Source: Polyangiales bacterium (GTDB taxonomy: Bacteria > Myxococcota_A > Polyangia > Polyangiales > Ga0077539). Taken from it: a stretch of 64,000 bases of DNA. The translations under genes and the position numbers were made by a program. Positions 2,298-37,985 of the stretch are shown piece by piece. Below the pieces are notes generated by a model. The model searched no databases. It saw only the letters and a list, made by a program, of their open reading frames with translations, and was not told the DNA's origin. Within the stretch, counting starts at the first letter, position 1. Each line of letters starts with the position of its first letter. The stretch spans positions 189,093 through 253,092 of the forward strand of contig JAWKRC010000007.1 in the NCBI GenBank assembly GCA_041389825.1, read 5' to 3'.

Positions 2298-3573
2298 TGA
2301 CGCGCTCTCGGCCGCCGTTGCAGCTCGCGTGGCTGGTGCGCCTACGGTGGGCGGCCATCGCGGCGCAGCTCGCCTCGATCGTGGGCGTGCGCTTCGTCCT
2401 GCACGCGCCCTTCCCCTTCGCGCCCCTGGCGATGGTGGTGGGCGCGCTGGTGGTGGCGAACCTGGTGCTCACGCTCCGCCTGCGGCGCGGGGCGCGGCTC
2501 TCCGACGCGGCCATCGCGGGCAACCTCATCCTCGACTCGGTGGGCCTCACCGCGCTGCTCATCTGGACCGGCGGCGCGATGAACCCTTCACCACGCTCTA
2601 CCTCCTGCACGTCGCGCTCGCGAGGATCATGGTGCCGCGGCGCTGGAGCCTCGCGGTGACGGTGTGCGCCGTGGCCCTCTTCGCGGGGCTGCTGATGGCG
2701 CGGCCCGAGGCCATTCACGTCTGGCACACGCCGGGGATGTTCCTCCTTCACGTGCGCGGGATGTGGCTCGCCTTCGCGCTCACCGCGGGGTGCCTCTGGT
2801 ACTTCATCGACCGGGTCACCACCTCGCTGCGCCGCCGCGAGGAGGAGCTCTCGGCCGAGCGGGTGGAGCGAGAGCGCGCCGCCCGGTGGAACGCCCTGGG
2901 CACCCTCGCCGCGGGCACGGCGCACGAGCTCAACACCCCCATGGGGACCGTGGCGATCCTCGCGTCGGAGCTGAGCGAGCTCCTCCCCGAGGGGAGCGAC
3001 GCCCGCGCGCAGGCCGACCTCATCCGCGCGGAGATCAAGCGCTGCAAGCAGATCCTCGGTCGCATGCGCGCCCACGGGCAGGACGCCGACACCGCCGACC
3101 GGGTCGCCCTCGGCCCCTGGCTCAGCTCCACAGTAGACGGCTGGCGCGCCGCGCACCCCGACGCGACGGTCGCCCTCTCCCTCGACCGCGGCCTCGCCGC
3201 TCGCGAGGTGGCCCTCTTCACCGAGCCCTTGCGTCAGGCGCTGGTGAGCCTCCTCGACAACGCGCGCCTCGCGCTGTCGGGCCGCGCCTCGGCTCTGCCC
3301 ATCGAGGTCACGCTCGCGCGCGGAGACGACCGCGACGCCTTCGAGCTCACGGTCATCGACCACGGCGTCGGCGTGCCGAGCGAGCACCTCCACCGCCTGG
3401 GCGAGCCCTTCTTCACCACGCGCGAGCCCGGGATGGGCATGGGGCTCGGGCTCTTCCTCGTGCAGGCGACGGCGTCGATGCACCGCGGCGCGATGCGCGT
3501 GCGCTCGGGCGAGGGCGAGACGCGGGTCACGCTCACGCTGCGCGGCGTGGGCGGGGGCGCAGAAACGCGCTAA
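2297..3573 (+). CDS. Sensor histidine kinase, RegB/PrrB/ActS family; apparent 1-nt deletion in a C-run near 2586
   Basis: N-terminal TM region ends ...GGAMNP in frame A. Frame B continues FTTLYLLHVAL (conserved RegB NPF motif), then H-box GTAHELNTP, HATPase (GMGMGLGL). Restoring one C joins the halves. Confidence 0.75.
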
Positions 3574-3598: not shown

Positions 3599-4549
3599 GT
3601 GACCGACGCCGAGCTCCGCTGCCGAGACGAGATCAGTCCCCCCGACGACGGGCGCGAGTCGCGCGCGCTGAAGGTCGCGGCGCTCACGCTGGTGACCATG
3701 GTGGCCGAGCTGGTCGCGGGGTACGCCACGCGCTCCCTCGCGCTCACCGCCGACGGGTGGCACATGGCCACGCACGCAGGCGCCCTCGCGCTCACCGCGG
3801 GGGCCTACTGGTTCGCGCGCACCCGCTCGAAGCGCGGCGCCTTCGCCTTCGGCGGAGGGAAGGTCCACGCCCTCGCGGGCTACACCAACGCGCTGGTGCT
3901 CCTCGCGGTGGCCGTCGAGATGGCCGTCGAGGGGGCGCAGCGGCTGCGCCACCCGCAGCCCATCGCGTACACCGAGGCGCTCGTGGTCGCCGTGCTCGGG
4001 TTGCTGGTGAACCTCGTGAGCGTCGTGTGGCTCACGCCCCCGGGCGAGCACCACCACCACGACCACGACCATCACCACCACGACCCTCACCACGGTCACG
4101 ATCACCACGACCATCACCACCACGGGCGCGACCGCGACGACAACCTGCGCGCGGCGTACCTGCACGTGCTGGCCGACGCGTTCACGAGCGTGCTGGCGAT
4201 CGGGGCGCTGCTGGCGGGGCGCTTCCTGGGCTGGGCCTTCCTCGACCCGGTGAGCGCGCTGGTGGGGAGCGTGATGATCCTGCGGTGGGGCGTCGGGCTG
4301 CTCCGTAGCGCGGGGCGAACCCTCGTCGACTCAGCCCCCGACGACGGCACCCTCGGGCTGATCCGCGAGACCCTCGAGGCGAGCGGGGCGACCGTGGTCG
4401 ACCTCCACGTGTGGGACGCGTCGCCCGGTCACCGCGTGTGCATCGTCGCGGTGCGCGCGACGAGCCCCCGCACCCTCGCGGAGTACCGCGCGGCCCTTCA
4501 GGAGAAGGTCGCGCTCCGCCACGTCACCATCGAGGTCGAGCCCGCGTAG
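3599..4549 (+). CDS. Cation diffusion facilitator (CzcD/ZitB-like) metal efflux protein
   Basis: CDF TM core (HMATHAGALALTAG...), His-rich loop HHHHDHDHHHHDPHHGHDHHDHHHH, C-terminal cytoplasmic domain. Confidence 0.85.
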   Translation: MTDAELRCRDEISPPDDGRESRALKVAALTLVTMVAELVAGYATRSLALTADGWHMATHAGALALTAGAYWFARTRSKRGAFAFGGGKVHALAGYTNALVLLAVAVEMAVEGAQRLRHPQPIAYTEALVVAVLGLLVNLVSVVWLTPPGEHHHHDHDHHHHDPHHGHDHHDHHHHGRDRDDNLRAAYLHVLADAFTSVLAIGALLAGRFLGWAFLDPVSALVGSVMILRWGVGLLRSAGRTLVDSAPDDGTLGLIRETLEASGATVVDLHVWDASPGHRVCIVAVRATSPRTLAEYRAALQEKVALRHVTIEVEPA

Positions 4550-4596
4550 CGAGGGAAGTTCTCGGCCACCCCGCGGCGTTTCGTGTACCGTCCCCG

Positions 4597-5556
4597 ATGC
4601 CTGACGGAGCGACCGCCCCCACCGTGGAACCCGACGCCCTCCTCGCACGCATCCGCGCGGCCCTCTCGGGCGTGATCTCGGGCCGCCCCGACGCGATCGA
4701 GCTCCTCCTCACCGGGGTGCTCTCGGGCGGTCACGTGCTCATCGAAGACGTGCCGGGGGTTGGCAAGACCACCCTCGCCCGCGCCCTCGCGAAGTGCTTC
4801 GACGTGTCGTGCACGCGGGTGCAGTTCACGCCCGACCTCCTGCCGAGCGACATCCTCGGCGCGCAGGTGCTCGACCCCCGCGACGGGAGCTTCGCCTTCC
4901 ACCGCGGGCCGATCTTCACGAGCGTGCTCCTCGCCGACGAGATCAACCGCGCGTCGCCCCGCACGCAGAGCGCGCTCCTCGAGGCGATGAACGAGGGCAG
5001 CGCGACCGTCGACGGCGTGACCCACGCGCTCCCGCGCCCCTTCTTCGTGCTCGCGACGCAGAACCCCATCGAGTCGCAGGGGACGTGGCCGCTGCCCGAC
5101 GCGCAGCTCGACCGCTTCGCCCTGCGCGTGTCGGTGGGCTACCCCTCGCCCGACGCCGAGCTCGCGATGCTCTACGCCCGCCAGCGCGCCGACCCCCTCG
5201 ACCGGGTCGAGTCCTTCGCGACGGGCTCCGACCTCGCGGAGCTGCAGGCCGCGGCGCGCGAGGTCGACGTGAGAGAGCCCGTGGCGCGCTACCTCCTGCG
5301 CGTGGTGACCGCGACGCGCGACCACCCCGAGCTCGCCATGGGGGCCTCTCCGCGCGGGGCGCTGTCGTTCTTTCGCAGCGTGCAGGCCCGGGCGCTCTTG
5401 CAGGGTCGCAAATACGTCACGCCCGACGACGTGCAGGCGCTCGCTGCGCCGGTGCTCGCGCACCGCGTGGCGCTGGCGCCGTCGGCGAAGTACAGCGGCG
5501 CGTCGTCCGACGCGATCGTGCGCGCGCTGGTGGCGGGGGTCGAGGTGCCGGTGTGA
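4597..5556 (+). CDS. MoxR-family AAA+ ATPase
   Basis: Walker A GVPGVGKTTLA, LLADEINRASPRTQSALLEAM, QNPIESQGTWPLPDAQLDRF. ATG at 4597 in frame. Confidence 0.9.
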   Translation: MPDGATAPTVEPDALLARIRAALSGVISGRPDAIELLLTGVLSGGHVLIEDVPGVGKTTLARALAKCFDVSCTRVQFTPDLLPSDILGAQVLDPRDGSFAFHRGPIFTSVLLADEINRASPRTQSALLEAMNEGSATVDGVTHALPRPFFVLATQNPIESQGTWPLPDAQLDRFALRVSVGYPSPDAELAMLYARQRADPLDRVESFATGSDLAELQAAAREVDVREPVARYLLRVVTATRDHPELAMGASPRGALSFFRSVQARALLQGRKYVTPDDVQALAAPVLAHRVALAPSAKYSGASSDAIVRALVAGVEVPV

Positions 5557-6887
5557 GCGCCGTCGCGGAGAGGCTCGGGCGTCTCCGCGATCGGCTGCGT
5601 CAGGTCGACTACGACCGGCTGAACCACATCCTCATCCCGTCGACCAACGCCGAGCGGGAGAGGTGGCGAAAGACCCGCCTCGGGCGCGCGGTGCAGCCCT
5701 TGTTCTGGGTCTTCTACGCGCTCACCCCCGCGGGCCGCGGGTACGCGCTGATGCTCTTCCCCGTGGGGATGTTCGGCCTCGAGATCGAGCGCGCGGACGT
5801 CTACGTGCTGTGGAGCCTCTTGATGGCGGCGGCGGTGGTGTCGGTCGCGGCGCGCAGGGCCTTCGCGATGGAGGGCGTGCGCGTCGAGGTGCGGGCGCCG
5901 GCGCGGGCGGCCATCGACGAGCCCGTGAACTTCACCGTGGAGCTCACCCACGACGGAGACCGGCCGCACGCCGACGTGATGGTCGAGGGCCCCTTCCTCC
6001 CCTGGGACGGCCGCTGGGACGGCGCGCACCCTCGCCTCCCGGTGCTCGCTCCCGGCGCGCGCGTGACGCTCACCGTGACGGGGAGGTTCCGCTCTCGGGG
6101 CGAGCACCACCTCGACCCCTTTCACGTCGGGGCGATGGTGCCGCTGGGCCTGACCTACGGCCCGCTCGTGCGCTCGCGCGGCGTGCGCTTCGTGGTGATC
6201 CCTCGCGCGGCGCGGGTGATCGCCGTCTCGATGCCGCTGCGCCCGCGGCACCAGCCCGGCGGCGCGCCGCAGGCCCTCGCGAGCGGAGACTCCTTCGAGC
6301 TGCGGGGCTTGCGCCCCTACCGCTCGGGCGACCCGGTGCGCGACCTGCACGCGAAGAGCTGGGCGCGCACGGGGGTGCCGGTGGTGCGCGAGTACCAGCA
6401 GGAGCACTTTCGTCGGGCGGCGGTGGTGCTCGACCCCGAGGTGAAGGGCCAGCGCGACGCGGCGGTGCTCGACGCGGCGGTGTCGCTCGCGGCGGGGCTG
6501 GTGTCGTTCCTCTCGCGCGAAGACGCGCTGGTCGACCTGGTGCTGATCGGCGCGCGCGTGCACGAGCTCCACGCGCACGGAGGCCGCGCGCAGGAGGTCC
6601 TCGGCGCCGCGCTCGACCTCCTCGCGTGCGTCGAGCCGGGCGATGCCTTCGACGCCGAGCGGGTGTTGAAGGCGCTCGGTCCCTTCGCGCCGAGGTTGTC
6701 TGCGGCGGTGGTGGTGACCTGCGCGCCGCGCGACGACCACGCGACGGTGGCGGGCCGCCTGCGCGCGCTGGGGGTGGAGTGCAAGGTGGTGGCGATCCAC
6801 CGCGAGGGCGCGAAGCCGTCGGCGCCCGCGGGGGTCACGTCGCTGTCGCACCGCGCGGTGCTCGCGGGCGAGCCCGTGAGCGTGTGA
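5553..6887 (+). CDS. DUF58 (vWA-like) protein, canonical MoxR partner
   Basis: GTG overlaps moxR stop (GTGA). Motif FELRGLRPYRSGDPVRDLHAKSWARTG typical of DUF58. Confidence 0.8.
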   Translation: MSAVAERLGRLRDRLRQVDYDRLNHILIPSTNAERERWRKTRLGRAVQPLFWVFYALTPAGRGYALMLFPVGMFGLEIERADVYVLWSLLMAAAVVSVAARRAFAMEGVRVEVRAPARAAIDEPVNFTVELTHDGDRPHADVMVEGPFLPWDGRWDGAHPRLPVLAPGARVTLTVTGRFRSRGEHHLDPFHVGAMVPLGLTYGPLVRSRGVRFVVIPRAARVIAVSMPLRPRHQPGGAPQALASGDSFELRGLRPYRSGDPVRDLHAKSWARTGVPVVREYQQEHFRRAAVVLDPEVKGQRDAAVLDAAVSLAAGLVSFLSREDALVDLVLIGARVHELHAHGGRAQEVLGAALDLLACVEPGDAFDAERVLKALGPFAPRLSAAVVVTCAPRDDHATVAGRLRALGVECKVVAIHREGAKPSAPAGVTSLSHRAVLAGEPVSV

Positions 6888-9475: not shown

Positions 9476-9907
9476 CTAGAGCAGCGCCGAGCACACCCCG
9501 CCGAGCGGCACCGCCGACGGAATCTCGACGGTGACCGTGTGCGTCCCGTCGGTCACCGTGTACCGCCCCGCGGGGAGCGGCGGCGTCTCACACCCCACCT
9601 CGGGCTTTGAGCACACGGGCGGCGGAGTGGTGCGGCAGTACGCGTCGACCACGACCGTGCCGCGAATCGTGAACGCGTCACCTTCCCGCGTGAGCGAACA
9701 CTCCCGCGAGACGAGCGTGTCGCAGGCGGGGCGGCACGACGACGTCATGATGATCCTCACCGGACGGTCGACCTCGAAGCGCGGCGCGTTCACGTCCGCT
9801 TCCACAGGCCTCACGCACACCCGCGTCAGTGGAACCTCCTCGCGCACCGGCCCGCACCCCGCCAGCGCGAACGCCAGCGCCACCCATCCCCTCCGCACGG
9901 AAAGCAT
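9476..9907 (-). CDS. Cysteine-rich small lipoprotein
   Basis: MLSVRRGWVALAFALAGCGP lipobox; 10 Cys in 143 aa. Confidence 0.5.
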   Translation of the reverse strand: MLSVRRGWVALAFALAGCGPVREEVPLTRVCVRPVEADVNAPRFEVDRPVRIIMTSSCRPACDTLVSRECSLTREGDAFTIRGTVVVDAYCRTTPPPVCSKPEVGCETPPLPAGRYTVTDGTHTVTVEIPSAVPLGGVCSALL

Positions 9908-9966
9908 CTCGACACGCTACACCGTCCCCTTGCCCTCGACGCGCGTTCGCGCCTTCACTCGCGCGC

Positions 9967-10693
9967 GTGCGTTCCGCCCTCGTCTTCGTCCTCGCGCTCG
10001 GGTGCGCCCACGCGCACACCGCTGTCGCCCCTTCCACCGGGCCCGTGTCGCTCTCGCCCCTCGTCGAGAACGTCTACGTCCACACCTCGTGGGGCACCGT
10101 GTCGAGCGGGACCTACCCCGCCAACGGACTCCTCGTCTGCGAGCCCGACGCCGGACTCCTCGTCGACACGCCCTGGACCAACGCGCAGACCGATCAGCTC
10201 CTCGCCATCGCGCAGCAGCGCGGGTGCCCCGTGCGCGCGCTGGTTGTCACGCACTTCCACGACGACCGCATGGGCGGGATCGACACCGTGCTGCGCCACG
10301 GCATCGCGACCTGGGCGACGCAGGCCACCGTCGACCTCGCGCATCGCGAGGGGTGGCGACCACGCATCCTCGACTCGCCCGGCGTCGTCCGCATCGGAGG
10401 CAGCGCCGCGGAGGTCTTTTTCCCCGGTGAGGCGCACACCCGCGACAACGTGGTCGTGTGGCTCGACGCGACGCGCGTGCTCTTCGGCGGCTGCATGATC
10501 CGCGCGGCCGCGGGCGACTCGCTCGGCAACACCGCCGACGGGGAACGTCGCCGCCTACGCCGCGAGCGTGCAGGCGGTGATCGACCGCTACCCCTCCGCC
10601 GAACGGGTGGTGCCGGGGCACGGCGACGCGGGCGGACCCACGCTCCTCACGCACACGCTCACCCTCGCCCGTAGCGCGCGACCCGCGGACTGA
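9967..10693 (+). CDS. Subclass B1 metallo-beta-lactamase-like protein; apparent 1-nt insertion in a G-run near 10545
   Basis: Signal/lipobox VFVLALGCAHA. HFHDDRMGG (VIM has HFHDDRVGG). FGGCMIRA (Cys221 region). After GNTADG the conserved tail NVAAYAASVQAVIDRYPSAERVVPGHGDAGGPTLLTHTL sits in the +1 frame. Confidence 0.75.
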
Positions 10694-10806: not shown

Positions 10807-12587
10807 ATGCGGAGCGTGATCGTCACCTTGATCGCGGCGTACTTCCTCGCGGCGTGCAGCACCGGACGCACCCTCGACGGCGACGCGTTCGACGACGCGT
10901 CGGTGACACCCTCCGACGACCTCGGGAGCGACGAGACCTTCGACTGGGGCGACGACCCGCCACCGCCCGGCGAGGGCGAAGACGACCCCTTCCCCGAGGA
11001 GGACGCGGGGCCCAAGGAGCCTGACCCCGAGTACTGGGCCGAAGACGCCGGCGAGCCGCCCGACCCCGAACCCCCGCCCGAAGACACCGACGCGGGCGCC
11101 TTCCCGGTGACGACTCTGCGGGCACACCCTTCCCCGTCGACGCGTCGACGCCGCTCCCCGCGGACTGTCACACCACCGCGGGCCCGCTGAGCTGGTCGTG
11201 CGACGGGCCCATCGCGGGGCAGCGCTGCGTCAACGTGAGCGAGCCCTCAGACAGCCACGGCTGGAGCGACAACCACGTCTGCTCCACCGTCGACATGGGG
11301 CTGCGCTGGTCGAACAGCGGCCCCATCGCCGGGATGCGCTGCACCGCGATCACCGAGCCCGGCGACCCCGACGGGTGGGGCGACAACTTCCTCTGCCTGC
11401 CGAACGACAGCCAGTTCTCCCTCGGGTGGAGCAACGCGGGCCCCATCCCGGGTCGGCTGTGCTTCCCGTGGGTCGAGCCGCAGGAGTCGTCGGTCTGGCG
11501 CGACAACCAGCTCTGCGTCTGGTGGCGCGCCGTCGACCCCGCGCCCCAACCCTCGCTGCCGCGCTATCGGGCCGTGTTCTCGTCGCGCTCGGGCACCAAC
11601 GCCGCCGACGGCGCGGTCGAAGACGCCATCGTCGACCTCATCGACCGGGCCGTGCCCGCGTCTCGCGTGCGCGTGGCCGTGTACCGCTTCACCCGCGCGC
11701 GGCCCGCGACGGCGCTCATCCAGGCCGCGCAGCGCGGCGTCGACGTGCGGGTCGTCGTCGACGGAGACGCCGAAGACAGCCCGGGCAGCGAGGTGCCACG
11801 GCTGATCTCCGCGCTCGGTCGCTCGCGCGTCACGGTGTGCGGCGCGCCCGGAACGGCCTGCCTCGGCACCGGGATCATGCACCACAAGACCTTCCTCTTC
11901 TCCGAGCTCGACGACGGCTCGCGGAACGTGGTGCTCCAGGCGTCGCACAACCTCACGACGGGGCAGCTCACGCGGCACAACAACGCCGTGATCATCCGCG
12001 GAGACTCGAACCTCTTCGCGGCCTACGAGCGCGCCTTCGCCGACCAGCGCCGCGACACCGTGCACGCGAACTACTACCGCGTCGCGAGCGGGAACTTCCG
12101 CACGCGCGGGTACTTCTACCCGCGGGAGTCGGGCGACACGGTGGCGGGGGTGATCGACAACGTGTCGTGCGCGGGCACGGCGCGCATCCGGGTGGCGATG
12201 GCCTTCTTCACCGACGCGCGCCTTCAGGTGGCGCGGGCCCTCGCGCGGCGGGCGCAGGCCGGGTGCGACGTGCAGGTGGTGATCGGGAACGCGGGCATCC
12301 CCGCGGGGCGGCAGGCGCTCGCGGCGCTGCGCGACGGCGGCGCGCGCGTGACGCTCTACCCGGCGCGCGGAGGCAACTGGGCGCTGCACTCGAAGTACCT
12401 GCTCATCGACGCCCGCTACGCCGGGTCGAGCGCGAACCGCAGGCTGGTGTTCACCGGCTCGCACAACTGGACGGGCGGCGCGCTGCGGCGCAACGACGAG
12501 ACGATGCTGCGGGTGGAGAACGACGACGTCTTCGCGGCCTTCATGGCCGACTGGGCGCACGTCCGCGACTCCGCCGGGAGGCGGTGA
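10807..12587 (+). CDS. Phospholipase D-superfamily (2x HKD) lipoprotein with N-terminal Cys-repeat module; apparent frameshift near 11105
   Basis: Lipobox LAACSTG, acidic disordered linker. The repeat domain continues upstream of the annotated GTG in another frame (LSWSCDGPIAGQRC...). HKD motifs HHKTFLFSELDD and LHSKYLLID. Confidence 0.7.
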
Positions 12588-12667: not shown

Positions 12668-13684
12668 ATGCCCAGCCCCGCCCACGAGTCCCTCGTCGCG
12701 TTGCTCTCGGAGCGCCCCGAGCTGCTCGACCAGCTCCTTCGCGCGCTCGGTCACCCTGGATTGCCCGCCGGGCTCACGGTGGTCGACGCGGCGGTGCGCG
12801 TGGTCGACCCGCTGGAGGTGCGCCCCGACCTGCTCCTGTTCGCCCGCGGAGAGCGCGGCCCCTGGGTCATCGTCGAGGTGCAGCTCACCCGTGACCCCGA
12901 GAAGATCCGGCGGTGGCTCGCCGTGGTCGGCGCGCTCATCGACGCCCGCGCCGCGATGGGCGACCTCATCATCCTGACGCACGACGCCTCGGTTTCCCGT
13001 TGGGCCGAGGAGGCCATCTCTCTGTGCAGCCCCGCAGGTACGACGCTTCAGTTGAAGCCCATCGTGGTGCGCCTCACGCGCGCCGAGGCCACGCCGCTCC
13101 TCGCGTCGGGTGAGCCGGAGCTCGCAGTGCTCGCGGCGTGGGCGGTGCACGATCAGCGGGGCGCCGACGCTCAGGCCGTGGTGCGCGCGGCGGTCGACGC
13201 GATCGGCGCGGCGCCCGACCCGAGCTTGCAGGTGGGGTTGATGCGCGCGATGGTGTCGATGCTCAACGACGCGCTCGTCGCGGTGGTCCGGGAGACGATC
13301 ATGAAGCCGCAAGTGCGAGAGAACCCCGCGTGGGAACTGATCAAGAGCGACCTCTACGCGGTCGTGAAGGCCGAGGCCGAGGCGAAGGGGCTGGCCACGG
13401 GGCTGGCCAAGGGGCTGGCCACGGGGCTGGCCAAGGGGCTGGCTGAGGGCAAGGCCGAGGGCAAGGCCGAGGGCAAGGCCGAGGGCAAGGCCGAGGGCAA
13501 GGCCGAGGGCAAGGCCGAGGGCAAGGCCGAGGCGCTCCTCACGCTGCTCACCGCTCGCGGGATCGCGGTCCACGACGAAGCCCGCACGAGCATCAGGGGC
13601 TGCACCGACGTCGCCGTCCTCGATCGGTGGATCATCCGCGCCGCCACCGCTACGTCGATCGATCAGGTGCTCGGCGCAGACTGA
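12668..13684 (+). CDS. PD-(D/E)XK-like / DUF4351-like protein (Rpn/YhgA-like family); paralog of 36990..37985
   Basis: N-terminal PDLLLFARGERGPWVIVEVQ nuclease-like core. Internal KGLA/EGKA repeats. C-terminus ALLTLLTARGIAVHDEART...LDRWIIRAATA resembles DUF4351. Confidence 0.6.
   Translation: MPSPAHESLVALLSERPELLDQLLRALGHPGLPAGLTVVDAAVRVVDPLEVRPDLLLFARGERGPWVIVEVQLTRDPEKIRRWLAVVGALIDARAAMGDLIILTHDASVSRWAEEAISLCSPAGTTLQLKPIVVRLTRAEATPLLASGEPELAVLAAWAVHDQRGADAQAVVRAAVDAIGAAPDPSLQVGLMRAMVSMLNDALVAVVRETIMKPQVRENPAWELIKSDLYAVVKAEAEAKGLATGLAKGLATGLAKGLAEGKAEGKAEGKAEGKAEGKAEGKAEGKAEALLTLLTARGIAVHDEARTSIRGCTDVAVLDRWIIRAATATSIDQVLGAD
13381..13535 (+). repeat. 12-nt periodic in-frame tandem repeat (gggctggccacg/aag x5, then ggcaaggccgag x7)
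   Basis: Read directly in sequence; encodes GLATGLAKGLATGLAKGLAEGKAEGKAEGKAEGKAEGKAEGKAE. Confidence 0.85.
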
Positions 13685-13744: not shown

Positions 13745-15646
13745 ATGCGCCCCTCGTCACGACTCCTCCGCGCGCTCTCGATCGCCGCTGTCGCGGTCGC
13801 GCTCGTCGCGCAGGTGCGCTCGCCCACCCACGCCGCGGCCGTCCTCGGCTGGCTCGCCGTGGTGCTCGCGGTGGGCCCGCGCATCAACGCCGGCACCGGC
13901 GCGCAGATCATCCTCATGGGCTTCTCGGCCCTCGCCGCGGTCTTCGTCGCGCAGGCCACCGCCCTCGGAGACGACGACGGCCGCCCCCGGCTCGTCGAGG
14001 GCTTCGCCATGGCCGCGACCGCCCTCTTCGCCGCCGCCTCGGTGCGCCGCGCCGTGAAGGCCACCTTCGGCGACGTGCGCGCCGACTTCGCCTTCGACGC
14101 CTTCGCCCTCGTCGCCTGCGCCCAGATGCGCCTGCACCCCGTCGCGCTCGCCGCCGTCGGCGCGTGGCTCCTCACCTCGCTCCTCGCGCTGCGCACCGAG
14201 GGCGGGGCCTCGCTCCCGCTGCGGCGGCTCCCGCGCCGAAACCTCGTCGCGCTCGCGATGATGGTCGTCGTCAGCGCGGGGCTCGCGGTGGGCGCCGCGC
14301 GCGGCCTGCGCGAGTTCTACGGCTGGGTCTCGGCGCGGATGATCCACGCGCTCGAAGACGACGTCTCCAGCGGCTTCGACGACCGCTTTGACCTCGGCGC
14401 GCTCTCGACGCTGCTGCAGTCCGAGGAGCTCGTCCTGCGCATCCAGGGCCCCGCGCCGGAGCACCTCCGCGGGAGCACCTTCGACCGGTATCAACGCGGT
14501 CGATGGCGGAGCTCTCGGGGATTCGCCCACCGCATCGTGCGCGTCCCCCGGGGGCCCATCGAGGGCGACGGGGTGATCTCCATCGAGCGCGTGGGAGGCG
14601 TCGGCGGGTGGTATTTCCTCCCGCTGGAGACGGGCCGCTTCGCGACGGAAGAGGGCGGCGCGCGCCTCGACCCGCTGGGCACCGTGCGCGCGATCCCCGG
14701 AGACCCCGGCCACCGCTGGTGGGTCACGCTCGGCCCGCGCGACGCGCTCGTGCCCGATCCCCCCACGGCGCGCGACACCGAGGTGCCCGAGGCCCTCGTC
14801 GACCCGCTGCTCTCGACGGCGCGCGCGTGGGCCGAGGGCGCCCGCGGCAACGACGACACCATGGCGCGGCTCACGGACAACCTCCGCGCGCGCTACCGAT
14901 ACTCCCTGCGCTTCTCGCGCGGTCGCACGGACCCGGTGCTGGATTTCCTCTACGTGCACCGCGAGGGGCACTGCGAGTACTTCGCGTCGGCGCTCGCGCT
15001 CCTCGGTCGCACGATGGGCGTTCCCACGCGGGTGGTGGGCGGCTACCGCGTGGCCGAGCGCAACCCCTACACGAACGAGTGGATGGTGCGCGAGATGAAC
15101 GCCCACGCCTGGGTCGAAGCGTGGGGCGACGACCACCGCTGGCACACCTGGGACGCGACGCCCGCCGACGGGCTCCCGCAGAACCAGCGGCACCAGACCG
15201 AGCGCTGGCGCGGGCTGCGCGAGGCGCTCACGTACTTCGCGGCGGCCGTGCAGCGCTGGGTGCTCGCGCGCACCGCGTGGCAGATGCTCGGCGCCGCGGG
15301 CGTGATGCTCGCGGTGTGGCTCGTGTACCGGAGGTTCCAGCCGCCCGAGGGGCCCGCGGTGGTGGGCCTCGACCCGCGCGACCTGCCGACGCCCGCCTGG
15401 ACGGCGCTGGAGACGGCCCTGGGCTCCCGCGGGATCACCCGCGCGAAGGGAGAGACCCTGGAGCGCTTCGCGGCGCGCGTGCGAGAGAGCGCGCTCCTCG
15501 ACGCGGAGTCCCGCGACGGCGCGGGCAGGGCCATCGAGGGCTACGCCGCGTGGCGCTACGGGAACCTCGGCGACGACGCCGCCGTGCGCGCGTCGCTCGA
15601 CGGCGCGAGGACGGCGCTGCGCGCGGCGAAGCCGACCGAGAGCTGA
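13745..15646 (+). CDS. Transglutaminase-like membrane protein (DUF3488/TGase core), usual third component of MoxR-DUF58 modules
   Basis: N-terminal multi-TM region. TGase core FLYVHREGHCEYFASALALLGRTMGVPTRVVGGY...AHAWVEAW. Late TM segment. Confidence 0.85.
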   Translation: MRPSSRLLRALSIAAVAVALVAQVRSPTHAAAVLGWLAVVLAVGPRINAGTGAQIILMGFSALAAVFVAQATALGDDDGRPRLVEGFAMAATALFAAASVRRAVKATFGDVRADFAFDAFALVACAQMRLHPVALAAVGAWLLTSLLALRTEGGASLPLRRLPRRNLVALAMMVVVSAGLAVGAARGLREFYGWVSARMIHALEDDVSSGFDDRFDLGALSTLLQSEELVLRIQGPAPEHLRGSTFDRYQRGRWRSSRGFAHRIVRVPRGPIEGDGVISIERVGGVGGWYFLPLETGRFATEEGGARLDPLGTVRAIPGDPGHRWWVTLGPRDALVPDPPTARDTEVPEALVDPLLSTARAWAEGARGNDDTMARLTDNLRARYRYSLRFSRGRTDPVLDFLYVHREGHCEYFASALALLGRTMGVPTRVVGGYRVAERNPYTNEWMVREMNAHAWVEAWGDDHRWHTWDATPADGLPQNQRHQTERWRGLREALTYFAAAVQRWVLARTAWQMLGAAGVMLAVWLVYRRFQPPEGPAVVGLDPRDLPTPAWTALETALGSRGITRAKGETLERFAARVRESALLDAESRDGAGRAIEGYAAWRYGNLGDDAAVRASLDGARTALRAAKPTES

Positions 15647-17788: not shown

Positions 17789-19574
17789 ATGAAGCGCGTG
17801 TCCTTGCTTGCGTGCGCGACGCTCTCCCTGGGCCTCGCCGCCTGCTCCGCCGAGCCCGACCGCTGGATCCCCGTCCGCGACAGCGGCACCAGCGGCACCC
17901 TCGACGGCGGCCGCACCTCCTGCGACCCCTCACAGATCTACTGCAACGGCAACGAGACCTACACGTGCGCCGAAGACGGCACCGTGCTCACGCGCCAGAC
18001 CTGCAGCGGCGCGACGCCCATCTGCGCCCCCGGCGTCGGGTGCCGCGTGTGCGTGCCGGGCACCAGCCGCTGCGACCCGTCCTCCCCCAACCGCGCGCAG
18101 ACCTGCGCCCCCGACGGCAGGAGCTACAGCGACGGCATCGCCTGCAACGAGGCCGACGGCGAGATGTGCGTGAGCGGCGCGTGCGTCTCGCGCTGCTCCG
18201 ACAGCGCCCTCGGCCGCTCGTACCTCGGCTGCGACTACTGGCCCACGGTCACCGCCAACGGCGCGCTCGACCCGAACTTCACCTTCGCCGTCGTGCTCTC
18301 GAACCCGCAGACCTACGCCGTGCGCGAGCATCACCGGCGGCGCCCTCACCGCCCCGCTCACGGTGAACCTCTCCCCCGGCGCCATCGAGACCGTCACCCT
18401 GCCCTGGGTGAACGACCTCGTGCAGTTCGACCCGCGCTGCGTGCCCGTCCGCGGCGGCGCCTGCCGCGGCACCGCCCCGCCGCCCACGTCGACCCTGCGC
18501 CGCGGGGGCGCGTACCACGTGCACACCAACGGCCCCATCGCCGCGTACCAGTTCAACCCGCTCACCTACGAGCGCTCGACGGGCTACTTCTCGTACACCA
18601 ATGACGCCTCGCTGCTCCTCCCGCAGGGCGTCTTGCGCCAGCGCTACATCGTCTCGACCTGGCCCAACGCCTACTCCGGCGGAGAGACCTCCGGCGGCTT
18701 CGTCGCCATCACCGCCGTGAGCGGCGAGTCGACGGTCGTCACGGTGCGCCCCACGGTGAACGTCTCAGCGGGCCTGGGCGTGCCCGCCATCGCCCGCGGC
18801 GCCACGCGCGAGTTCTCTCTCCAGCCCGGCGACGTGCTCGAGCTCCTCGGCGACGGCCCCGGGGACCTCACCGGCACCACCATCGAGTCGTCGCTCCCCG
18901 TGGCCGTGTACGTGGGCCACAACTGCACCACCATCCCCTCGACGCGCCCCGCGTGCGACCACTTGGAGGAGCAGCTCTTCCCCAACGAGACGTGGGGCCG
19001 CGACTACTTCGTCTCGGCGCTGCGCGACCGCGGGCCGACGATCCCGTCGATCATCCGCGTGATGTCGCAGGCCGACGGCAACCAGATCACCTTCGACCCG
19101 CCCACCGCGGGCCAGAACCGCACCCTCAACGCGGGAGAGTTCTTCGAGTTCTCCTCGGTGAACCACTTCCGCATCCAGGGCAGCCAGGCCTTCCTCGTGA
19201 CGCAGTTCATGGTGGGCCAGGGCCCCGCCTCCAGCGCGGGCACCGGCGCCGGAGACCCCGCGATGGTCTTCGAGGTGCCCGTGCAGCAGTTCCGCAACAG
19301 CTACGACTTCTACGTCCCCGCGACGTACCCGACGAACTACCTCAACGTCGTCGCCCCCGAGGGCACGCAGCTCACCCTCGACGACGCGCCCTTCACCGGC
19401 ACCCCCGACAGCGTCGCGGGCTTCAGCGTGTACGCCCAGCGCGTCACCGCGGGCCCGCACCGCATCCGCTCCACCAACAACCAGGGCTTCGGCATCAAGG
19501 TCTACGGCATCGCCCCGTACACCTCGTACATGTACCCCGGCGGGCTCGACCTGCAGCTCATCACCCCGGGCTGA
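17789..19574 (+). CDS. Secreted lipoprotein with N-terminal Cys-rich repeats and large C-terminal beta domain; apparent frameshift near 18320
   Basis: ATG 17789, signal LLACATLSLGLAACS. About 20 Cys in the first 150 aa. Frame changes from frame 2 to frame 0 (…NPQTYAVR / CASITGGALTAPL…) with coherent protein on both sides. Confidence 0.55.
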
Positions 19575-36989: not shown

Positions 36990-37985
36990 CTACGCGGCGA
37001 AGATCGCGTCTCCGTCGCTCGCGGTCGCCGCGGCCGTGAGCCAGCGCGTGAGTCGGGCGACGTCTCCCTCGGCGACGACGGCGGCGTGCTGATCGGGCGA
37101 GAGCGCGACGCCACGCGCCTCGCAGAGCGTGAGGATCGCGGCGCTCATCGCGACCTGCGCCGCGTGGAGTTGGCCGCGAACGTCGTCGCGCTCGCGGCGC
37201 GCGTCGTCGCGCTCGCGAGCCGCCTCATCGAGTTGTGATTGCTGCTGGTCGGCCATCGCCTGGAGCCGCGCGACGATCTCCGACGCGTCGGGGACGAGCG
37301 CCTGGTTCGCGTAGAAGCGCAGGCGCGTTCCGACGGCGGCGAGCTCCAACCCGAGGACGGCGGAGCGGAGGTAGCCACCCTGCGGGACGCTGGGCTGGTA
37401 GGTGAGGGCGTCGAGCTCCGCGAGCCTCCACCCGCGGAGCTGGCCGTCGCGGCAATTGAAGCTGAAATACTCGGGGATGCGCCGCCGCGCGTAGTCCCGG
37501 ACGTTCTCGACGAGGTCCTTGTGCTTCTTGCCGAGGTTGCGCACCTCGACGACGACGTCGACGCCTCTGCCCTGCTCGGACACGACCCAGGTCTCGGGTT
37601 CGATGTCGGGGTCGCAGTCCATCACCGCGAGCACGTCGGGGACGATCGCCGGCTCGCCGGGGTAGAGCACGGCGAGCTCGCTCGCGATGAAGACCGCGCG
37701 ACCCGCGCGGCGGAAGTGCCCATCGAGCTCCGCGGCGATCCCGGTCTTGCGCCGCTGGTGGCGCACGCCCTCAGACATCGCCTCGCGGTACTCGTCGAGC
37801 GTGTCGAGGATCCGGTCGATCACCCGCTGCCGCTCGGCGGGGTCGAGCCGCGCCCAGGTCTCCTCATCGGGAAACACCAGCCGAGGGTCATCCCAGAAGC
37901 CGCCAGGGCGCGCGGGCTGAGAGGGTCGCACCGTCGCTCGCGGAGCCAGTACCACCGCGGGAGGTGAAGGTGCGGGCGATGTCAT
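36990..37985 (-). CDS. Uma2-family (DUF820) PD-(D/E)XK endonuclease-like protein with coiled-coil and DUF4351-like C-terminus
   Basis: PDVLAV...GVDVVVEVRN...KHKD...IPEYFSF. C-terminus AILTLCEARGVALSPDQ...LTRWLTAAATA parallels the 12668..13684 C-terminus. Confidence 0.75.
   Translation of the reverse strand: MTSPAPSPPAVVLAPRATVRPSQPARPGGFWDDPRLVFPDEETWARLDPAERQRVIDRILDTLDEYREAMSEGVRHQRRKTGIAAELDGHFRRAGRAVFIASELAVLYPGEPAIVPDVLAVMDCDPDIEPETWVVSEQGRGVDVVVEVRNLGKKHKDLVENVRDYARRRIPEYFSFNCRDGQLRGWRLAELDALTYQPSVPQGGYLRSAVLGLELAAVGTRLRFYANQALVPDASEIVARLQAMADQQQSQLDEAARERDDARRERDDVRGQLHAAQVAMSAAILTLCEARGVALSPDQHAAVVAEGDVARLTRWLTAAATASDGDAIFAA

Follow-up and report, generated by a model that had tools for sequence, protein, structure and literature searches.

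An uncatalogued cysteine-rich, three-repeat module in a predicted phospholipase D-family lipoprotein of a Polyangiales bacterium

Introduction

Two groups of solved proteins lie closest to the catalytic part of the protein described here, a phospholipase D (PLD)-like lipoprotein encoded at 10807-12587 on the forward strand of a 64,000-nucleotide stretch of DNA (the window) from a Polyangiales metagenome-assembled genome (MAG). One group comprises the phospholipase D of Serratia plymuthica (SpPLD, 7e0m) together with PLD3 and PLD4, which act on single-stranded DNA (ssDNA). Like the core of the window protein, these are single chains with a duplicated HKD fold and both HxK...GSxN motifs, and Foldseek aligns them to it with E values of 5e-15 to 1e-13, probability 1.0 and a target-normalized TM score of about 0.6. 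They differ in that identity is just 14-18% and in that the matched chains, of 384-426 residues and aligned almost end to end, are essentially the PLD fold, with no module or lipoprotein tether seen. Since SpPLD uses phospholipid and PLD3/PLD4 use ssDNA, this similarity of fold assigns no substrate. The other group, Nuc, NucT and Zucchini, gives the best sequence matches among solved proteins. These single-HKD nucleases, chains of about 160-220 residues, act as dimers. Each half of the window core aligns to one such domain, and in the window protein the two halves are fused.

The window protein also carries a small Cys-rich module ahead of its core, and here the closest parallels are in behavior. 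SH3b, LysM, PG_binding_1 and CBM13/CBM92 are likewise small, promiscuous modules of variable copy number found on unrelated extracellular enzymes, especially peptidoglycan hydrolases. Beta-trefoils, like the module, are built from three internal repeats, each of which has a conserved aromatic residue and conserved acid/amide residues. Among solved domains, alignments that span about 100 of its 122 residues are given only by APC-beta of apicomplexan perforin-like proteins and the C-terminal domain of PCSK9. Both are all-beta, disulfide-containing domains with pseudo-threefold symmetry. As set out below, the module matches no Pfam family, and it is found on many secreted lytic enzymes of predatory bacteria.

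Results

Organization of the protein

Repairing one frameshift (see below) gives a product of 593 amino acids with the following layout. The frames were read directly from the sequence.

10807-12587 (+), whole gene, read as one gene
10807-10857 (+), residues 1-17, lipoprotein signal peptide MRSVIVTLIAAYFLAAC by inspection, lipobox LAAC, Cys17 codon at 10855-10857
10858-11156 (+), residues 18-117, acidic Pro-rich low-complexity tether, frame 1 to about 11099 and frame 0 after it
11157-11522 (+), residues 118-239, Cys-rich three-repeat module, isoelectric point (pI) 4.3, 8 Cys and 8 Trp
11157-11282 (+), unit A of the module, with an extra Cys pair
11283-11396 (+), unit B
11397-11516 (+), unit C
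residues 240-252, Pro-rich connector of 13 residues between module and PLD core
11562-12587 (+), residues 253-593, two-HKD PLD core, pI 10.2, stop codon at 12585-12587
11880-11903 onward (+), HKD motif 1, HHKTFLFS...GSRN, with S rather than D after x4
12387-12410 onward (+), HKD motif 2, HSKYLLID...GSHN

The module is a single three-repeat domain

The 122-residue module holds exactly three units of 38-46 residues, and every unit has the signature C-x4-E-x6-8-W-x-D-N-x2-C. Compared pairwise without gaps, the units share 15-18 of 33 residues, against 2.2 +/- 1.4 in shuffled sequences (maximum 10 in 20,000). A sequence-only reading of this DNA had described a repeat here. That repeat is real, with two invariant Cys per unit, but the count of "three or more" units becomes three, as a register based on GW had split one unit across the two ends. 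Unit A had also been thought visible only after repair of the frameshift. It is in fact visible without repair, lying in the same frame as the PLD open reading frame (ORF) upstream of that ORF's GTG start, and it is only its translation that needs the repair.

An hmmsearch with the A1 profile finds one copy of the module in the window (E 7.7e-55, profile positions 2-124). An alignment of 313 non-identical modules shows 18 positions with conservation of at least 93% (6 Cys, 3 Glu, 3 Trp, 3 Asp and 3 Asn), and all 18 are present in the window module. The WxDNxxC motif occurs in multiples of three, with 3, 6 or 9 copies in 58, 49 and 8 proteins, respectively (115 of the 148 top representatives). 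The three unit positions are each distinct and conserved, with ...FxWSxxGP... in A, DxGLRWSxAGPIxGMRCT... in B and xPxxSPxxFxWS... in C. The extra Cys pair of unit A is either complete (74 modules) or missing (232), with a single Cys in just 7, and so looks like a fourth disulfide.

The repeat region was then modeled, as the sequence-only reading had proposed. AlphaFold2, given a 26-module alignment, predicts a single all-beta domain with about three strands per unit (mean predicted local distance difference test (pLDDT) 92.2, predicted TM score 0.86), and the module and PLD core modeled together reach a pLDDT of 92.6. Because AlphaFold2 folds one domain, and because the units nearly always occur in triples across the family, we take them to form one globular domain of about 122 residues with three repeats, not independent mini-modules. 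The earlier suggestion of disulfide-stapled modules therefore keeps its Cys pair in each unit and loses the separateness of the units. The invariant Glu, Trp, Asp and Asn of each unit are predicted to sit in the loop that joins strands 2 and 3, a thrice-repeated arrangement that would suit three equivalent ligand sites.

The module is not catalogued

No Pfam-A or NCBIfam family matches the module, even at E<=10, so the repeat proves not to be a known Pfam domain and the description of it as new stands. A Pfam scan of 106 full-length module-bearing proteins leads to the same result: no Pfam family is common to more than 11 of them, and thus no Pfam model covers the module. A profile search of all PDB sequences returned one marginal match, to cyanovirin-N (CVNH; E 0.012), and Foldseek found no relative of the module model in the whole PDB (best E 0.93). 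In the source annotations the module proteins are "hypothetical protein" or "Cnidarian restricted protein". Literature searches gave no description of the module, and searches with motif strings such as DNYLC, or for myxobacterial M23 and cell-wall-binding domains, gave nothing relevant.

Three known families were considered as homes for it. Assignment to the cyanovirin-N lectins was rejected, as the profile match has no structural support. Judged by Pfam match, QxW repeats and beta-trefoil fold, the module is also not a ricin-B/CBM13-type lectin. The Cys-rich repeat of ascidian rusticalin and placozoan PLys is beta-defensin-like, with the pattern Cx6Cx6-7Cx8Cx7CC (PMC6339383), and was rejected for a module with C-x17-C spacing and two Cys per unit. 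The module is thus an uncatalogued domain family in the collections searched (Pfam, NCBIfam and PDB), and its predicted fold has no relative in the PDB.

The module is shared by unrelated secreted enzymes

An exhaustive hidden Markov model (HMM) search with the module, a further proposal of the sequence-only reading, covered 1.84 billion representative proteins and returned 1082 hits at E<=1e-3, 829 of them at E<=1e-10. The bacterial carriers are nearly all Myxococcota, joined by Bdellovibrionaceae and Oligoflexus. Fusion partners were counted in the 106 representatives scanned with Pfam. Peptidase_M23 is the most frequent (11), followed by matrixin (6), astacin (5), VanY (3), PG_binding_1 (3), CHAP (2) and ricin lectins (2); GH25, Amidase_2, trypsin, subtilase, PL14, GH43 and others occur once each, and Sushi, EGF, WSC and DM9 are eukaryote-type partners. 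In all, the module is joined to more than 15 unrelated secreted catalytic domains, N- or C-terminally and in 1-3 copies, which lends indirect support to the earlier idea of a targeting module. It stands at the N-terminal end of the PLD and glyoxal-oxidase fusions, and the peptidases carry it C-terminally. Many members are stand-alone proteins of about 150 residues, a signal peptide followed by one module, that are secreted or lipoproteins.

Close relatives were sampled by scanning species-representative genomes with a pattern from unit B, GLRWS[NSH][AS]GP[IV], which reaches close relatives only. It found 17 loci, of which 15 are in Myxococcota or closely related MAGs, one is in Bdellovibrionaceae and one is in a "Rhodobacteraceae" MAG. 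Among the 10 scanned proteins whose unit B is nearest to that of the window, seven are peptidoglycan hydrolases (4 M23, 2 VanY and 1 Amidase_2). The Bdellovibrionaceae MAG encodes, at 2845-3345 (+) of locus L019, a 166-residue lipoprotein (signal ...LVGC) with one module and nothing else, so the module also exists as a lipid-anchored protein without an enzyme. In Myxococcota, M23, VanY and amidase proteins with a module have a C-terminal Gly-Cys...hydrophobic...RRRR tail that by eye is MYXO-CTERM-like (loci L006, L009, L011, L012, L014, L015 and L017; proteins P0079, P0099, P0100 and P0103), and these proteins appear to be surface-anchored as well. Within the PLD family the module is limited to a small clade (P0001-P0007 and P0362). 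Most PLD orthologues, such as P0013, run from the acidic tether directly into the PLD core.

Eukaryotic carriers include P0292, P0295 and P0358 of Clytia hemisphaerica, P0341 of Pseudolycoriella hygida, P0285 and P0318 from EukProt, and P0105. Their forms include secreted proteins of about 150 residues and proteins in which the module is joined to a hevein, somatomedin B, Sushi, EGF or WSC domain. The 147-residue secreted module proteins of C. hemisphaerica are encoded on Mb-scale contigs and are genuine genome-encoded eukaryotic members. This distribution suggests transfer between kingdoms, with contamination ruled out for some of the cases only.

The catalytic core is an ordinary PLD

Pfam PLDc_2 matches the core twice (E 1.5e-31, 109.4 bits against a gathering cutoff of 27), the two HxK(x)4D(x)6GSxN motifs are in place, apart from the S that replaces D in the first, and the predicted fold is that of the superfamily. 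This bears out the earlier assignment to the PLD family, and the core is an ordinary member of it. Among 94 homologues H242, K244, S263 and N265 of the first motif and K413, G434, S435 and N437 of the second are invariant, and H411 and D418 of the second are at least 90% conserved. Two Cys pairs of the core are at least 90% conserved in the same set, which would fit an extracytoplasmic location. AlphaFold2 gives a pLDDT above 95 over the core, and Foldseek relates it with probability 1.0 to 7e0m, PLD3/4, PSS, PPK1-C and F13. At a net charge of +13, the core is strongly basic. It does not fall within the NucT/Nuc equivalogs NF010490-NF010493, scoring 19-35 bits against cutoffs of 211-351; with the NCBIfam NucT models it reaches 35 bits against cutoffs of 225-297 bits.

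Reading frames and the frameshift

As assembled, the gene is split into a 127-residue N-terminal ORF and a 450-residue ORF. The relevant features are as follows.

10807 (ATG) to stop at 11188-11190 (+), frame 1 ORF, MRSVIVTLIAAYFLAAC followed by a highly acidic Pro-rich stretch
11025 to stop at 12585-12587 (+), frame 0 open stretch, repeats and PLD
11235-11237 (+), GTG, GenBank start of the 450-residue ORF MEZ4405999.1, inside unit A
11099-11100 (+), frameshift site, one base fewer than the intact orthologue, inside the low-complexity linker

MEZ4405999.1, a "phospholipase D-like domain-containing protein" of a Polyangiales MAG, is the sole product annotated at the gene. Frame 0 has no ATG, GTG or TTG from 11025 up to the GTG at 11235, and a product starting there would have neither the signal peptide nor the first part of unit A.

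The sequence-only reading had placed a frameshift near 11105. As far as 11099, frame 1 has a G+C content at third codon positions (GC3) of 0.92; frame 0 then has values of 0.83-0.89 over 11100-11234 and 0.96-0.98 over 11235-12587. Because GC3 marks the true reading frame in this DNA (73% G+C over the window), the frame switches at about 11100. Two DNA alignments agree. Against locus L001, whose product P0001 (587 residues) is 84% identical over 100% of the repaired protein, the single indel that is not a multiple of three is a base missing at 11099/11100, where GGGCGC-CTTCCCGG in the window stands against GGGCGCGCTCCCCGG in the orthologue. Against locus L020, the indels fall within 11082-11110 and sum to -1 modulo 3. 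The run at the site reads GCGGGCGC(G)C. It contains no slippery heptamer by eye, and the relatives are in frame, so programmed frameshifting was rejected.

Locus L020 (Logan SRR11928969) encodes P0362, a protein of 594 residues in the same 90% cluster and 96% identical to the repaired 593-residue protein. P0362, P0001 and P0003-P0007 (61-65% identity) are intact single ORFs, so that the possibility of the N-terminal and PLD parts being separate genes in relatives falls away. Between the window and L020, the ratio of nonsynonymous to synonymous substitution rates (dN/dS) is 0.106 over 476 codons downstream of the frameshift (module 0.094, PLD 0.101), which indicates purifying selection until very recently. 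Two origins are considered for the frameshift: an error made in assembling this GC-rich, low-complexity stretch, or a very recent loss of the gene's function. The repaired reading corrects the GenBank record from a cytoplasmic-looking PLD of 450 residues to a lipoprotein of 593.

By inspection the N-terminus has a signal peptide ending in a lipobox of the form [LVI][ASTVI][GAS]C, and the lipobox is kept in the intact relatives (LAAC in P0362 and P0001, GIGC in P0003, LVGC in P0006), in agreement with the earlier call of a lipoprotein. The acidic linker that had been placed between the lipobox and the PLD core is present, at about 100 residues, but lies between the lipobox and the module; it is the 13-residue connector that precedes the core. 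Per 100 residues the tether has 32 Asp+Glu, 2 Lys+Arg, 20 Pro and 11 Gly (pI 4.05), a composition from which we infer that it is probably disordered. DNA alignments show that its length differs between relatives.

Genomic neighborhood

The following neighbors in the window frame the gene.

4411-5556, MoxR
about 5560-6887, DUF58
13745-15646, TgpA-like transglutaminase

A block of SDR(-), GST(-), metallo-beta-lactamase and PLD genes splits this MoxR-DUF58-TgpA cluster between DUF58 and TgpA. L020 keeps the order SDR, GST, metallo-beta-lactamase, PLD and TgpA-like transglutaminase, and in both L001 and L020 the gene downstream of PLD is TgpA-like. The adjacency is broken in L004. As it holds in close relatives only, it says nothing on function. 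A SitA-type lipoprotein toxin of myxobacterial outer-membrane exchange was considered and rejected for lack of a conserved adjacent immunity gene; SitA escort domains were not tested.

Directly upstream of PLD, and conserved in L020, is a subclass-B1-like metallo-beta-lactamase (9829-10674, +) that scores 178.5 bits with NCBIfam bla_subclass_B1, just below the 200-bit cutoff. Translation probably begins downstream of the GTG that is listed as its start. The listed 5' extension is overlapped by an ORF of 143 residues (9476-9907, -) with a lipoprotein-like N-terminus (...ALAGC) and several Cys, which has no family hit and no counterpart in the L020 gene list. Downstream of PLD lies an ORF of 338 residues (12668-13684, +) with a (GLAK)n/(KAEG)n repeat, for which there is no Pfam hit and NCBIfam gives only low-complexity FliH-like hits. 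It is missing between PLD and TgpA in L020 and L001, and is therefore an insertion of about 1 kb; its last 49 residues have a 41%-identical counterpart at 36993-37139 (-). A few kb downstream, 18363-19574 (+) encodes an IgGFc_binding protein with a full-length PF17517 match (E 5.5e-72).

Discussion

On balance, we favor reading this protein as a surface-exposed or vesicle-borne lipoprotein PLD that is docked by a target-binding module, the target being cell envelope or glycan. The precursor would be exported and lipidated at Cys17, as its lipobox suggests, and the lipid anchor would hold the PLD on the surface of the producer or on its vesicles. The acidic Pro-rich tether of about 100 residues would, from its composition, serve as a flexible spacer. 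The module, with its three Cys-pinned repeats and an E...W-x-D-N loop in each, would dock the enzyme on a polymer of the target envelope; the likeliest candidates are the peptidoglycan of prey bacteria and a glycan associated with it. The basic two-HKD core would then cleave a phosphodiester by the usual phospho-histidine mechanism. A binding module is proposed because of the fusion partners and the threefold repeated conserved residues. We place it in the class of binding modules because it is independent of position, varies in copy number, accompanies more than 15 unrelated catalytic folds and has a stand-alone secreted form. An envelope ligand is favored because its closest relatives sit on peptidoglycan hydrolases of predatory bacteria.

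Several points weigh against this reading. The binding role is argued from guilt by association, and since some partners (proteases and a glyoxal-oxidase-like enzyme) have no action on peptidoglycan, the ligand may be more general. The pseudo-threefold geometry and the disulfide pairing are predictions, and the surface exposure of the Trp, Asp, Asn and Glu residues is putative. By sequence, the solved proteins that match the core best are nucleases or Zucchini (E 1e-7), and by fold its best matches mix the phospholipase D 7e0m with the PLD3/4 exonucleases. Finally, the copy as assembled cannot yield the full-length protein.

This last point could mean that the gene is a dead pseudogene whose features have no current function in this organism. 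The frameshift does leave an N-terminal fragment and a longer ORF without the signal peptide and the start of unit A, and it is this longer product alone that GenBank annotates. We nevertheless consider a dead gene the less likely case, as there is no second lesion, GC3 stays at 0.96-0.98 downstream of the frameshift, dN/dS is low against a 96% relative with an intact copy, and the site of the indel is low-complexity, GC-rich MAG sequence, where assembly errors would be common. A stronger contender is that the core is a secreted nuclease acting on extracellular or prey DNA or RNA, with the module tethering it to cells or matrix. We give this reading substantial weight, though a little short of even chances. 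In sequence, no solved proteins come nearer than Zucchini/MitoPLD, NucT and Nuc (with E from 1e-7 to 2e-3), the best NCBIfam hits are NucT and DrmC, though far under their cutoffs, the top fold matches include the ssDNA exonucleases PLD3 and PLD4, and the core is strongly basic. Yet it is a genuine phospholipase D, from the bacterium S. plymuthica, that heads the fold matches, and scores fall short of the NucT equivalog cutoffs by some 190 bits or more. Basic charge on the core would serve equally well for anionic phospholipids, and the other partners of the module target the cell envelope and not nucleic acids. Because those partners attack the envelope, we slightly favor membrane phospholipid over nucleic acid as the substrate.

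For the module itself, a role in membrane or lipid binding like that of the threefold beta-prism APC-beta domain, by which the enzyme would be seated on lipid, could fit a phospholipase. P0105, one of the eukaryotic carriers, has a Ser/Thr-rich C-terminal region that by eye is pore-former-like; a search of that region against PDB sequences for a pore-forming domain gave no significant match. The module is acidic (pI 4.3), no hydrophobic loop is conserved in the alignment, and the substrate of its main partners, the peptidoglycan hydrolases, is not a lipid, all of which make lipid binding improbable. Still less probable, in our view, is a pro-domain that stabilizes the enzyme, acts like a chaperone or inhibits it until activation removes or displaces the domain. 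Cys-rich N-terminal domains have such a role in other secreted lytic enzymes, for example placozoan PLys (PMC12855814), and the module is N-terminal to the catalytic core in PLD. Elsewhere it stands on either side of the catalytic domain, in 1-3 tandem copies, on more than 15 unrelated folds or alone as a protein of about 150 residues, as binding modules typically do and cognate pro-domains do not, and the PLys/rusticalin repeat is a different motif.

Returning to the docking module that we favor, a more specific and tentative proposal is that it is a carbohydrate- or peptidoglycan-recognition fold with three equivalent Trp/Asp/Asn/Glu sites. It might aim the lytic enzymes of predators (Myxococcota and Bdellovibrionota) at their prey, and might be shared, by ancient horizontal transfer, with cnidarians and other eukaryotes, in which the stand-alone form would serve as a secreted pattern-recognition lectin.

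The value of the finding lies in the module, which is attached to much of the predatory lytic arsenal (M23, VanY, CHAP, GH25, amidase, metalloproteases and PLD). Its ligand, once defined, would annotate hundreds of "hypothetical" proteins, and lysin engineering might gain a new small targeting domain. Knowledge of the ligand would also point to the way in which secreted enzymes of myxobacterial and Bdellovibrio-like predators are guided to the envelopes of their prey.

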